Shown one piece after another: positions 21,119 through 27,047 of a stretch of 64,000 bases of DNA. The translations under genes were made by a program, and so were the position numbers. Every line of letters starts with the position of its first letter. The first letter of the stretch is position 1. Below the pieces are notes generated by a model. The model had not been told where the DNA came from. It was given only the letters and a program-made list of their open reading frames with translations, and ran no database searches. This stretch comes from Spirochaetota bacterium. GTDB lineage: Bacteria > Spirochaetota > Brevinematia > DTOW01. The DNA is taken from the NCBI GenBank assembly GCA_025061835.1, contig JANXAC010000002.1, positions 37,185 through 101,184 on the forward strand. The letters are read 5' to 3'.

Positions 21119-22309
21119 ATGGCTGAAGGTAAGTTCGAGAGAAAGAAGCCCCACATCAATGTAGGGACTATAGGTCACGTTGACCACGGTAAAACAACTT
21201 TGACTTCTGCTATTACTAAAGTTCTATCAAAAAAGGGCTACGCTAAAGAAAAGAATTATGAAGATATTGACAATGCTCCTGAAGAAAAAGCTAGAGGTAT
21301 AACTATTCAGATTCAGCACATAGAATACGAAAGTGATACAAGACACTACGCACACATAGACTGTCCAGGACACGCAGACTATGTTAAGAATATGGTTACG
21401 GGTGCAGCACAGATGGATGGAGCAATACTTGTTGTCGCTGCTAATGATGGTGTTATGCCTCAAACAAGAGAACATGTCTTGCTCGCCAGACAGGTAGGTG
21501 TTCCTTACATTGTAGTATTCCTAAACAAGATTGATATGGTCGATGACCCTGAAATCATTGATATAGTTGAAGAAGATGTAAGAGATCTCCTGAAGAAGTA
21601 CGGCTACCCTGGTGACAAAGTTCCTATCATAAGAGGTTCTGCTTACAAAGCCATGACAAACCCTGACCCAAACACAGACGGTAAGAGTATATTAGAGCTC
21701 CTTGATGCTCTTGACAAGTTTATCCCCGAACCCGTTAGAGAGATTGATAAACCATTCCTTATGCCTGTTGAAGATGTATTCTCCATCTCAGGTAGAGGAA
21801 CTGTAGTTACCGGTAGAGTTGAGAGAGGTAAGATCACTCCAGGTGAAGAAGTTGAGATAGTAGGACTTTCTTATGAGGTCAAGAAAACTGTCGTTACATC
21901 AATAGAGATGTTTAGAAAGGAACTTGACTCCGCTATAGCCGGAGACAACGCTGGATTGCTTCTAAGAGGTATTGGAAAGGATGAAGTTTGGAGAGGACAG
22001 GTTATCTGTAAGCCTGGGTCAGTTACACCTCATAAGAAATTCAAGGCAGAGATATATGTTCTGAAGAAAGAAGAAGGTGGAAGACATACTCCATTCTTTG
22101 CTGGTTATAGACCTCAGTTCTTCTTTAGAACCGCAGATGTCACTGGAACTGTTACGAAGATACCAGGAGAAATGGTAATGCCAGGAGATAATGTGAATGT
22201 TGAGGTTGAATTAATATACCCTGTTGCTATGGAAAAGGGACTTAGATTTGCTATAAGAGAAGGTGGTAAAACAGTCGGTGCAGGTGTTGTAACAGACATT
22301 ATTGAGTAG
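21119..22309 (+). CDS. tuf: translation elongation factor Tu
   Basis: [11 protein letters not shown]-loop, DCPGH, NKIDMV and [13 protein letters not shown] motifs; 396 aa; AGGAGG RBS. Confidence 0.97.
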
Positions 22310-22322
22310 TTTCGGTGGTTCT

Positions 22323-22631
22323 ATGGTTTCAAAAATAAGAGTAAAACTAAAGTCATACGACGCTGAAGTAATTGACAAAACTGCCAAAGACATATGTAAT
22401 GTAGTCAAGAATGTAGGGGCTAAAACTGTAGGCCCCATACCATTACCAACAAAAATAAGGAGATACACTGTCTTAAGATCTCCTCACATAGATAAAGACT
22501 CAAGAGAGCATTTTGAATATAGACTTCACAGAAGGCTAATAGACATACTTGAGCCATCTCAAGAAGTTATAGATGCTCTCTTAAGATTGGAAATACTACC
22601 TTCAGTTGATGTGGAGATAAAACAAGATTAG
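22323..22631 (+). CDS. rpsJ: 30S ribosomal protein S10
   Basis: [20 protein letters not shown]...[15 protein letters not shown] matches S10. ORF track start 22302 is a TTG inside the tuf 3' end; the first ATG is at 22323. Confidence 0.93.
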
Positions 22632-22671
22632 TTATAGATCAAGAATACCTAGATTTTATTTGGAGGAAGTT

Positions 22672-23325
22672 ATGGGAAAGTCTTTTACCGGAAAGGGGCT
22701 TATAGGCAAGAAGATAGGAATGACGCAAATATTCGTTGGTGAAAACGTTGTTCCAACTACAGTTATAGAAGTAGGTCCTTGCACCATATTACAAGTCAAG
22801 ACACCTGAAAAAGACGGATACAGTGCAATCAAACTCGGTTTTGGAGCTGTCAAGTCTAGGGTAAAAGATAAGAGTGATAAGACAAAGTATAAGATAATAC
22901 ATAAACCTGCTATAATAAAAGAGTTTAGAGTTGATGACCCTACAAAGTTTAAGGCTGGAGATACTCTAGATGTTTCTTATCTTGAAGGCATCAAGTATGT
23001 TGATGTAAGTGGATACTCAAAAGGTAGAGGCTTTCAAGGTGTTATGAAGAGATGGGGCTTTTCCGGAGCTCCTGACTCACACGGACAATCGGTGTTCCAC
23101 AGAAGACCTGGTTCAATAGGACAGCATACATTCCCCGCTAAAGTATGGAAAGGTAAGAAAATGCCCGGTAGGATGGGTGGTGAAAAGGTAACAGTCCAAA
23201 ATCTGGAAGTTATTCATATTGATAAAGAGAAAAACCTTATCCTCGTTAAAGGAGCAGTACCTGGCTACAACGGCAGTTATGTTTTTGTGAGAGAGGCTAT
23301 CAAGAAATCAAATCTGGTTGGTTAG
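22672..23325 (+). CDS. rplC: 50S ribosomal protein L3
   Basis: GLIGKKIGMTQIF N-terminus and L3 body. Track start 22660 is TTG overlapping GGAGG (22662-22666); ATG 22672 lies 5 nt downstream of that RBS. Confidence 0.93.
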   Translation: MGKSFTGKGLIGKKIGMTQIFVGENVVPTTVIEVGPCTILQVKTPEKDGYSAIKLGFGAVKSRVKDKSDKTKYKIIHKPAIIKEFRVDDPTKFKAGDTLDVSYLEGIKYVDVSGYSKGRGFQGVMKRWGFSGAPDSHGQSVFHRRPGSIGQHTFPAKVWKGKKMPGRMGGEKVTVQNLEVIHIDKEKNLILVKGAVPGYNGSYVFVREAIKKSNLVG

Positions 23326-23332
23326 TTTATTG

Positions 23333-24308: not shown

Positions 24309-24377
24309 ACATCAGATAATAGAAAAATATAAGAATTTTTAAGATTATTTCAAAAATTCTCTAGGAATGAAAACCTT

Positions 24378-25538
24378 TTAGTAAATTTTCTTGACAACTT
24401 TACCATTATAGAAGTACCTGAAACCTAGTAATCCTCTATTAACGAGCTCATTAACACTAGAAACTACCTTATCTTTCTCAAGACCTCTTAAACTACCAAA
24501 GTGCTCCCAAAGAAATCTATCATTCACACCCATAAGAGACTTTACTCCCTCTTCAAATTCTACATATTTACCTTGAAACGAACTACAGATTATTCTTTCG
24601 TTTCTATCTAGCACTTCTGTGTTGTTTTTGTTGTGTTTTAAATACTTTAGTCTTTTAGACATGAGATAGCAAGACAGATACTCTCTTTTATCTCCCTTAA
24701 ATCCAAGAAAGTTTAACCATTCAAGATACTCTTCTCTTAATCTAGGATACTTATCTAACCTTCTCGCCAATATTCCTTCATCCTTATGTGATACTATTAT
24801 CGTATAATTATCAGAAGGGATGTTTAGTGTATCGTGTATGAATTCTGAAAGTATTTTAGGTATCCTTATATAAACTACATTGTTAAAATTCACATTCCTG
24901 ACTAGGAAGCGAAATTTATATGGAACAACTAGAAAACCTCCTTCAACCTTGAACTTGCTCAAGACTACTCTTCTAGTATAAAAATCAATATCCTTAAGCA
25001 CTAAACAACTAATATCCTTTAGAGAGTTCTTGATCAAAAGAGATTGAGTAATATCTTTTGATATGATTAAAGTCCTTCTCGTTTGTAGATTACCTAAATC
25101 TCTAGTAATGAATTCCAATTTTTTGCTAGTAAAAAACACAGATATCTTGTATTCGTAATTTTCTCTTACTTCAACCTTTAAACTAGAATAGGACTTTAGA
25201 CTCTTAAGAAATTTCCTCAAGTTTTTTCTGTTCATGCAGCCTGAAACGACAGAAACCTTCTTGAATTCTGATCCTCTAACAAATTCGTAGAGTTCTCTAT
25301 ACTTTTCTCTATACAGGGGTGATAGAGGATATATAAATTCAGGGTCTATGATGAACACCTCATGATCTCTAGTATCACCCTTGAAGAATTTGAATGATTT
25401 GTACCCGATAATTTTTAAAGGTGATAAATTTATAAACTCTTGGTTCAAGCGAGGATTTACAATAAGAGTTGGGGAGTCTAGCTTCACCACCTCCCCTAAC
25501 ATTATCTTCCTCTTTTCAGAAGGGAAGATTAAGTTCAT
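24378..25538 (-). CDS. hypothetical protein (386 aa)
   Basis: ORF track; start ATG abuts the rpmI stop (TAGATG). An alternative ATG 12 codons in (about 25502) has a better RBS (AAGAGGAAG). No recognisable motif. Confidence 0.5.
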   Translation of the reverse strand: MNLIFPSEKRKIMLGEVVKLDSPTLIVNPRLNQEFINLSPLKIIGYKSFKFFKGDTRDHEVFIIDPEFIYPLSPLYREKYRELYEFVRGSEFKKVSVVSGCMNRKNLRKFLKSLKSYSSLKVEVRENYEYKISVFFTSKKLEFITRDLGNLQTRRTLIISKDITQSLLIKNSLKDISCLVLKDIDFYTRRVVLSKFKVEGGFLVVPYKFRFLVRNVNFNNVVYIRIPKILSEFIHDTLNIPSDNYTIIVSHKDEGILARRLDKYPRLREEYLEWLNFLGFKGDKREYLSCYLMSKRLKYLKHNKNNTEVLDRNERIICSSFQGKYVEFEEGVKSLMGVNDRFLWEHFGSLRGLEKDKVVSSVNELVNRGLLGFRYFYNGKVVKKIY

Positions 25539-25733
25539 CTAGAAAATCATTCTCTTCACTTTCTTTGCTTGGGCGTAAGTGAGTTCTAACTCCTGACTAA
25601 GTCTTCTTTTTCTTCTTCTTGATTTGTCAGATAGTAAGTGTCTCATACCTTGTTGTCTTCTAAGTATTTTACCAGATCCCGTGATTTTAAACCTTTTCTG
25701 CGCAGAAGTGTTTGGCTTGTTTGACTTTGGCAT
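25539..25733 (-). CDS. rpmI: 50S ribosomal protein L35
   Basis: MPK...KRFKITGSGKILRR...HLL.DKS.RRKRRL matches bL35; GGAGG RBS upstream; 64 aa. Confidence 0.88.
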   Translation of the reverse strand: MPKSNKPNTSAQKRFKITGSGKILRRQQGMRHLLSDKSRRRKRRLSQELELTYAQAKKVKRMIF

Positions 25734-25748
25734 AATCTACCTCCGATA

Positions 25749-27047
25749 CTACTCAAATATATGGCCTTGGTAGGATCTTATTCCTTTGTATATTGCACTT
25801 CTACCAAGTTCCTCTTCAATCCTTATAAGTTGATTATATTTTGCTAGTCTATCAGTTCTGGACAAAGATCCTGTTTTTATTTGACCAGAGTTTGTAGCAA
25901 CTGAAAGGTCTGCTATCGTTGTATCCTCGGTCTCTCCAGATCTATGAGAAATTACATAAGTATAACCTGCCTGTCTTGCTAGTTCAATAGCATCAAGAGT
26001 CTCTGTCAATGTTCCAATCTGATTGACTTTTATCAAGATAGAGTTTGCGATCCCTTTGATTATACCTTCTCTTAGTATGCTTGCGTTCGTTACAAACAAG
26101 TCATCACCCACGAGTTGAACTTTCTTACCCAACCTATCTGTAAGCATCTTCCAACCATCCCAGTCATGCTCTGACATACCATCCTCTATTGATACAATAG
26201 GATAGCTCTTAACCCAATCTTCAAGCAACTCAACCATCTTTTCAGTTGAAAGTTCTTTACCTTCACCTTTGAGCACATAAACTTTTCTATTAGTATCAAA
26301 AAGTTCGCTTGACGCAAGGTCAAGTGCTAGGTATATATCCTTCCCAGGTTTGTATCCCGCCTTTTCAATCGCCTCAATGATAACTTCAATAGCCTGTCTG
26401 TTTGATGACAGATTAGGTGCAAATCCTCCCTCATCGCCAACTCCTGTAAATAGTCCTTTAGAAGACAGAACCTTCTTGAGAGAGTGGAATGTCTCGGCAG
26501 CCATCCTTATAGCATCTTTGAAAGAATTTGCATTAGCAGGAACTATCATAAACTCTTGAAAATCAACATTACTATCAGCGTGCTTTCCACCATTTAGAAC
26601 ATTACACATAGGTGTTGGTAAAACTTTTGCATTAGTTCCGCCAATATACCTATACAAAGGTATTCCGAGCAAGTTAGAAGCAGCTCTAGCAACCGCTAAT
26701 GAAACACCAAGTATAGCATTAGCACCTATCTTTGATTTGTTTTTAGTCCCATCAATTTCTATCATCTTTCTGTCAATACCAACTTGATCAAAAACACTCA
26801 TACCTACAATTTCTTTCTTTAGAACTTCATTAACATTCTTAACTGCATTCAAGACACCTTTACCTAGATACCTATTTTTATCTCCGTCTCTTAGCTCAAC
26901 CGCCTCGTTTTCACCAGTAGACGCACCAGAAGGAACTGCTGCTCTACCTATGGTTCCATCCTCCAATATCACATCCACTTCAACGGTAGGATTACCCCTA
27001 GAATCAAGGATCTCTCGTCCAACAATATCAATAATAACATCTGACAT
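25749..27047 (-). CDS. eno: enolase (phosphopyruvate hydratase)
   Basis: [20 protein letters not shown]-terminus, SHRSGETED active-site region, 432 aa; AGGAGG RBS. Confidence 0.96.

Follow-up and report, generated by a model that had tools for sequence, protein, structure and literature searches.

Ribosomal protein (r-protein) gene clusters belong to the most stable arrangements in bacteria and serve as synteny anchors, binning markers and models of autogenous operon-wide regulation. How, then, does a spirochaete come to carry tuf-rpsJ-rplC without rplD-rplW-rplB, rpmI without infC or rplT, and prp without rplU or rpmA, all within 64 kb? The question is raised by a stretch of contig JANXAC010000002.1 (64,000 nucleotides, ~35% G+C, ~90% coding; hereafter the window), which comes from an uncultured spirochaete, the same organism as the metagenome-assembled genome (MAG) GCA_026414895.1. 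An earlier note on this DNA had weighed lineage-wide operon scrambling against a local rearrangement with a tRNA gene as breakpoint. Comparison with relatives, which carry the public-record names Brevinematales/Brevinematia, speaks for the former, since all three neighbourhoods were met again in other species or genera. With a probability of roughly 85%, this clade has dismantled the ancestral str-S10-spc, infC-rpmI-rplT and rplU-prp-rpmA arrangements into units of two to five genes, which are conserved as units in reshuffled surroundings.

In E. coli and B. subtilis, the canonical str-S10-spc-alpha arrangement reads rpsL-rpsG-fusA-tuf, followed by rpsJ-rplC-rplD-rplW-rplB-rpsS-rplV-rpsC-rplP-rpmC-rpsQ and further genes, a supercluster that Borrelia and Treponema presumably have as well. 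The infC-rpmI-rplT operon of E. coli and B. subtilis is subject to L20-mediated feedback and shows translational coupling between rpmI and rplT, and an rplU-prp(ysxB)-rpmA operon is typical of Firmicutes and related phyla. Gene identities in the window were assigned with NCBIfam and Pfam, and all open reading frames (ORFs) of at least 90 amino acids (aa) were run against Pfam. Among these ORFs there is no r-protein gene beyond those described below, and none corresponds to infC, rplT, rplD, rplU, rpmA, fusA or ruvA; the gaps between them are small, and smaller ORFs were viewed in two gaps only. An additional 10 kb past the right end of the window contains no r-protein genes either.

The tuf-rpsJ-rplC-tRNA-Ser(UGA) unit

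The unit opens with tuf (21119..22309, plus strand; EF-Tu, NCBIfam 708 bits), continues after 13 nucleotides (nt) with rpsJ (22323..22631, plus; S10, NCBIfam 136 bits, true ATG at 22323) and after another 40 nt with its final protein gene, rplC (22672..23325, plus; L3, NCBIfam 260 bits, true ATG at 22672, GGAGG Shine-Dalgarno sequence). Following a spacer of 7 nt, tRNA-Ser(UGA) (23333..23421, plus) was called by ARAGORN (89 nt, anticodon tga) and matched by Rfam RF00005 with 58 bits. Its cloverleaf has a long variable arm, the UGA anticodon was confirmed, and it is the sole tRNA gene in the 64 kb. The strand then switches: a 293-aa gene converges on the unit, its stop codon 5 nt from the tRNA. 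The gene calls bear out the order given in the earlier note, in which tRNA-Ser and a strand switch take the place of rplD-rplW-rplB. Compared with the canonical arrangement, tuf-rpsJ-rplC keep order, orientation and tight spacing, including the rpsJ-rplC adjacency of the S10 operon on the same strand, but no fusA precedes tuf and a tRNA instead of rplD follows rplC. Upstream of tuf lies an opposite-strand gene, without fusA, rpsG or rpsL.

L3 relatives were taken from a contig scan with one genome per species. The same four elements occur in 'Spirochaetes bacterium RSWP19' (L003) and in an 'uncultured Brevinematales' (L004), whose L3 proteins are 75% and 70% identical to that of the window, and all remaining L3 matches in the scan are ≤56% identical. 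The rpsJ product is 87-88% identical in these two species and the rplC-tRNA spacer measures 7-8 nt. The tRNA occupies the same site in both, as it does in two loci from the same organism as the window (L001, L002), and its paired base changes relative to L003 and L004 look compensatory by eye. In L003 and L004 an M16 peptidase gene comes next after the tRNA, instead of rplD; upstream of tuf, L004 has genes for a sigma-54 activator and a glycogen phosphorylase and no fusA. No L4 homologue was found downstream of rplC in L001-L004 (3.8-10 kb of sequence). Nucleotide similarity between the window and L003/L004 stops precisely at the tRNA 3' end. As the unit is kept in other species and the flanks are unrelated, the four-element unit is conserved and its surroundings are not. 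The tRNA-Ser forms the conserved end of the tuf-rpsJ-rplC unit and is not a recent breakpoint inside an operon, as had been suspected; yet it marks exactly where synteny between species ends, suggesting that rearrangements repeatedly used the boundary just 3' of the tRNA.

As a background, rplD follows rplC immediately in 70 of the 77 species sampled around rplC. The seven species without adjacent rplD are three clade members, two Myxococcota with no rplD within 10 kb of rplC (L013, L020) and two Chloroflexota/Dehalococcoidia with rplD 4.4 kb downstream of rplC (L039, L043). A further apparent case, L032, was rejected on re-check as an ORF-picking artefact.

Splits in this region have precedents. 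In the cyanobacterial/plastid and Thermus-type arrangements, tuf and rpsJ remain together and a new cluster begins with rplC. The clade resembles these in that the str-proximal part is split from the remaining S10 cluster with tuf and rpsJ together, but it has its break behind rplC, one gene further along and with a tRNA gene as the cap, and shows more breaks after rpmC and before rpsS. The E. coli thrU-tyrU-glyT-thrT-tufB operon likewise combines tRNA genes and tuf in a compact unit, presumably transcribed as a whole and dependent on RNase P for processing. Its tRNAs come before tuf, whereas in the window a single tRNA-Ser ends tuf-rpsJ-rplC, with which it may be co-transcribed.

The tight spacing suggests that tuf-rpsJ-rplC-tRNA-Ser would form one compact transcription unit with its own promoter, the 7-nt spacer pointing to co-transcription of the tRNA with rplC. 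The tRNA would probably close this first transcript, and its excision by RNase P would set the 3' end of the r-protein mRNA. The 5 nt between the tRNA and the convergent gene are too few to hold a classical terminator; promoter and terminator scans gave results no better than the shuffled expectation. In an Rfam search of 20300-27600 (E ≤ 1) the tRNA was the sole match, with no r-protein leader RNA.

eno-rpmI, solitary prp and other broken clusters

On the opposite strand, eno (25749..27047, minus; enolase, NCBIfam eno 708 bits) opens a unit in which rpmI (25539..25733, minus; L35, NCBIfam rpmI_bact 63.7 bits, cut-off 51.2) follows after 15 nt and a 386-aa RecQ-like gene after 0 nt. It had been noted from the sequence that rpmI stands behind eno without infC or rplT and precedes two unknown genes, and this is indeed the case. 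The order infC-rpmI-rplT is not found here: eno replaces infC upstream and the RecQ-like gene replaces that of L20 downstream, and a relative pairs rplT with rplS. As in the classical operon, the gene behind rpmI begins at the rpmI stop codon or overlaps it.

This arrangement is shared as well. eno lies directly upstream of rpmI in at least five further lineages, namely GCA_026415355.1 (L086), two Joint Genome Institute (JGI) metagenomes (L087/L088), GCA_964475465.1 (L089/L090, the same MAG as L004), GCA_049968435.1 (L091/L095) and GCA_900175155.1 (L093/L094), and neither infC nor rplT stands beside rpmI in these five. The L35 homologues of the clade are 67-81% identical to that of the window. 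The RecQ-like gene follows rpmI in four of the five related lineages and is missing in L093/L094, where a terminator-like hairpin comes after rpmI.

A promoter-like TTGAGA-18-TAAAAT lies upstream of eno (27110-27081, minus), a consensus match in a scan that was not above chance. The eno-rpmI-recQ-like genes would constitute a second compact transcription unit with its own promoter, converging on the first and possibly extending into the 293-aa gene. E. coli-type cis-feedback, exerted by L4 on the S10 leader and by L20 on the rpmI leader, would be unable to act on the window units because rplD and rplT are absent from them. An L20-binding leader RNA gave no match in Rfam, but the Rfam L20 leader model is phylogenetically narrow and this negative therefore carries little weight.

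The third neighbourhood concerns prp, the gene of the ribosomal-processing cysteine protease (17243..17551, plus), which starts 14 nt after ruvB (16221..17228, plus; NCBIfam RuvB 459 bits) and stands solitary ~4 kb upstream of the tuf unit. Its position behind ruvB instead of between rplU and rpmA was thus read correctly from the outset. The product belongs to Pfam PF04327 (50.7 bits, gathering score 27) and scores below the NCBIfam equivalog cut-offs (32 bits versus ≥133). It aligns to S. aureus Prp of the same family (4PEO, E=2.6e-6) with the conserved catalytic His/Cys dyad kept (GHS...DIVCAG versus GHA...DIVCAG); in 7jvs, a variant of Prp in the PDB, Ser replaces the dyad Cys. The substrate of Prp is L27, from which it cleaves an N-terminal extension. 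No ruvA precedes ruvB, and the gene upstream of it encodes a 269-aa protein with a Pfam match to Germane only. Seven prp homologues were detectable, all within the clade. Unlike in the rplU-prp-rpmA operon, prp is solitary in every clade member examined (L083, L084, L102/L103) and never stands beside rplU, rpmA or ruvB. It is followed in the window by a convergent block (17541..20876, minus) of three genes, assigned by domain matches, for a 336-aa protein without assigned function, a DUF5312 protein and a gamma-carbonic-anhydrase-like protein; L084 has the same block after prp, at 37%, 69% and 65% identity. The ruvB-prp adjacency is species-specific; what the clade has in common is just that prp stands alone.

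Furthermore, clusters are broken at other points in the relatives. In L095, an isolated rpsS-rplV-rpsC-rplP-rpmC block (229-2854, plus) keeps the canonical internal order but has a hydrophobic 103-aa ORF and not rplB before rpsS, and an ABC ATPase gene and not rpsQ after rpmC; rpmB stands alone 5 kb further on, beside a 53-aa ORF without Pfam match. The L22 of L095, used as a metagenome query, retrieved only distant matches from outside the clade (37-38% identical). In L102, recognised as a relative by its Prp only (56% identical), rplT (L20) is followed after 9 nt by rplS (L19; 106-813, plus), and the 105 nt upstream of rplT are non-coding, with a Shine-Dalgarno sequence, a -35/-10-like pair seen by eye and no trace of rpmI. 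Elsewhere among the relatives, the usual neighbours pheS and pheT each stand between unrelated genes, pheS without pheT after it (L087, 541-1575, minus) and pheT after an unrelated gene (L083, 19104-20309, plus). The pheS gene of L087 lies ~5 kb from eno-rpmI and is possibly a remnant of an ancestral infC-rpmI-rplT-pheST neighbourhood. When 54 window proteins were compared with 152 kb of the relatives' loci, anchor blocks alone were shared. Conserved stretches in the clade thus typically span three to four genes, also in cases of 60-90% protein identity. The three neighbourhoods and the further clusters broken in relatives therefore suggest that r-protein fragmentation is part of a clade-wide rearrangement in which small functional units were retained.

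A recent local rearrangement, with tRNA-Ser as the breakpoint that cut rplC from rplD and similar recent events at rpmI and prp, might explain why the genes after the tRNA differ between the window and L003/L004, why similarity ends at the tRNA 3' end, and why the ruvB-prp adjacency and the 293-aa orphan are species-specific. We consider it highly unlikely. The losses around rplC, rpmI and prp are common to relatives whose anchor proteins are 56-81% identical, so that the breaks must predate these species, and no repeat, insertion sequence or integrase was found (Pfam) at the rplC-tRNA junction. The same non-canonical units are shared by the relatives, which makes the arrangement a lineage trait and not a local event.

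The chance is very remote that the genes are extra paralogous copies, i.e., a second tuf-rpsJ-rplC, a second rpmI and a prp-like paralogue, with canonical operons elsewhere. It is true that tuf is duplicated in many bacteria and that prp scores far under the NCBIfam equivalog cut-offs. However, the relatives' clusters are broken at other points too (no rplB before rpsS, an ABC ATPase after rpmC, no rpmI before rplT), and L3, S10, L35 and Prp are full-length and above curated thresholds, with the catalytic residues of Prp kept.

An exact match to the window L3 is encoded on contig JAOAIC010000061.1 (28 kb) of the NCBI MAG GCA_026414895.1 and again in the Logan assembly of the public run SRR15826899, which is independent of it. 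The two assemblies share the order S10-L3-tRNA-Ser, followed on the opposite strand by the 293-aa gene, the 386-aa gene, L35 and enolase. At about 27-50 kb, the window bridges two contigs of this MAG, JAOAIC010000061.1 and JAOAIC010000038.1, and hence represents a third, more contiguous assembly; a contig of 145,688 bp that encodes the same Prp is on record. Since the identical order in two other assemblies excludes the mis-assembly at the tRNA that had been a concern, it is barely conceivable that the contig is an assembly or binning artefact, chimeric at the tRNA or other junctions, even with a metagenomic source and two bridged MAG contigs: two other species retain the rplC-tRNA junction, and composition is uniform across the junctions.

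Several points weigh against the preferred reading, the dismantling of ancestral clusters in the clade. All relatives are MAGs or metagenome contigs and none is a complete genome. rplT was located in one relative only, and no locus was found for rplD, rplW, rplB, infC, rplU and rpmA in the organism or its relatives. A second, canonical set of the operons might conceivably exist at another site of the genome. Co-transcription, tRNA processing and a ribosomal role of the RecQ-like protein are deduced from spacing and fold.

A literature search found no account of r-protein gene order in Brevinematales. The clade is a fresh example of a known phenomenon, the lineage-specific dismantling of conserved operons, and the surprise is moderate because such scrambling is already known. 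A free-living spirochaete clade with tuf-rpsJ-rplC-tRNA, rpsS...rpmC, eno-rpmI-X, rplT-rplS and a solitary prp offers a natural test of r-protein stoichiometry without classical operons. It also calls for caution with tools that presume canonical r-protein neighbourhoods.

A RecQ-fold protein encoded behind L35

The eno-rpmI-recQ-like module is the most original by-product of this comparison. Its last gene (24378..25538, minus) encodes a RecQ-fold, motif-degenerate helicase-like protein of 386 aa with an isoelectric point (pI) of 9.7. The start abuts the rpmI stop codon, which the ATG joins directly (TAG-ATG), and is confirmed by the N-terminus M-x-x-I-x-P-S-E-K-R-K, which is conserved in orthologues. 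These are 25-40% identical and stand directly after rpmI (L086, 8205-9338; L087, 8192-9436; L095, 10195-11346), with a 12-nt gap in L086, a 4-nt ATGA overlap in L087-L090 and a 1-nt overlap in L091/L095. A HMMER search of 1.84 billion representatives returned only nine family members, and the family is clade-restricted. All members are basic (pI 9.1-9.8).

The 386-aa protein matches nothing in Pfam (E ≤ 0.01), NCBIfam or PADLOC, and no Pfam helicase domain (DEAD/Helicase_C/RecQ_Zn_bind) was found. A profile of 11 members matches the DEAD-box helicase MJ0669 (PDB 1hv8, E=5e-5) over a stretch that begins at motif II and closes with the second RecA domain. An AlphaFold model built from the 11-sequence alignment reached a predicted local distance difference test (pLDDT) score of 88.6 and a predicted template modelling (pTM) score of 0.88. 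The top Foldseek matches of this model are RecQ catalytic cores, led by 1oyw (E=2.9e-11, template modelling (TM) score 0.60) and followed by RECQ1, BLM, RECQL5 and WRN. The model comprises two RecA-like domains together with the RecQ C-terminal helical and winged-helix domains. A hidden L20 domain was considered and rejected, as there is no Pfam match and the fold is RecQ-like.

The protein differs from RecQ helicases (E. coli RecQ 1OYW, RECQ1, WRN, BLM) in being ~130 residues shorter than the matched cores. It differs from these and from the DEAD-box 50S-assembly helicases SrmB, DbpA and DeaD in its degenerate Walker A and motif II and in the lack of an arginine finger. Motifs were mapped to RecQ by eye, with help from the modelled secondary structure and the alignment to 1hv8. 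'PSEKRK' occupies the strand-loop-helix site of Walker A, where Gly and Ser/Thr are lacking, 'DPE' takes the place of DEAH/DEAD, and the GRxGR/GRAGR arginine finger is missing. The family alignment contains no invariant Cys and thus no conserved zinc-site (Cys4) residues. The modelled fold and its motifs suggest that this is probably a RecQ-derived, ATPase-dead nucleic-acid-binding protein.

Judging from the spacing, the RecQ-like protein would be made in a fixed ratio with L35 via translational coupling. Without using ATP, it would bind nucleic acids, most plausibly in the biogenesis or function of the 50S subunit, a role suggested by the coupling to L35 and by the known involvement of superfamily 2 (SF2) helicases in ribosome assembly. 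The protein may have taken the rplT slot after rpmI and, with its synthesis coupled to that of L35, be either a partner of L35 or a novel factor associated with ribosomes or 50S assembly. We put this forward tentatively and hold it to be unlikely, but the module offers a concrete, testable candidate for a ribosome-linked protein. If true, a lineage without classical r-protein operons and feedback would have turned a DNA-helicase scaffold into a binder of RNA or ribosomes that has no catalytic activity.

It is possible, if doubtful, that the recQ-like gene is unrelated to ribosomes and that its linkage to rpmI is a frozen accident. The protein might be a degenerate, DNA-binding RecQ relic, in line with its best structural matches, which are RecQ-family DNA helicases, or it might act with enolase in a complex akin to the RNA degradosome, which in E. 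coli and B. subtilis includes both enolase and SF2 helicases. The eno-rpmI pair of L093, with its terminator-like hairpin and no recQ-like gene, also fits a non-ribosomal role. Yet the start abuts or overlaps the rpmI stop codon in most of the lineages compared, despite only 25-40% protein identity, which argues for selected coupling to L35 synthesis, and the uniformly basic character of the family likewise speaks against a role apart from ribosomes.

Neighbouring genes in the window

The 293-aa gene (23427..24308, minus) is a species-specific orphan between the recQ-like gene and the tRNA. It has tblastn matches in L001 and L002 only, and no homologue was found in any relative locus examined. 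The protein has no match in Pfam, NCBIfam or PADLOC, and a PDB sequence search returned noise only. A promoter-like site precedes the gene (24353-24326), not above chance.

Two flagellar genes of the window are further signs of dispersed operons, as fliD (47140-49185, minus) stands alone without flaG or fliS, and an FlgM-like anti-sigma factor gene (62220-62561, minus) is solitary. scpA (7199-7915, minus) is followed by a 287-aa ORF without Pfam match at the scpB slot (6330-7193, minus), which might encode a very divergent ScpB or represent another broken pair. A probable type II restriction-modification pair lies at 34347-36374 (plus). Its 192-aa endonuclease is EcoRII-C-like, and its partner of 420 aa is an N6/N4 DNA methyltransferase (PADLOC MTase_II, 342 bits). 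At 36501-38981 (minus), an 826-aa protein in which a pyridine-nucleotide-disulfide oxidoreductase is joined to rhodanese, TusA and DsrE domains represents a multidomain enzyme of the sulfur-transfer/CoA-disulfide-reductase type. Finally, a gene for a Pirin protein is located at 664-1482.

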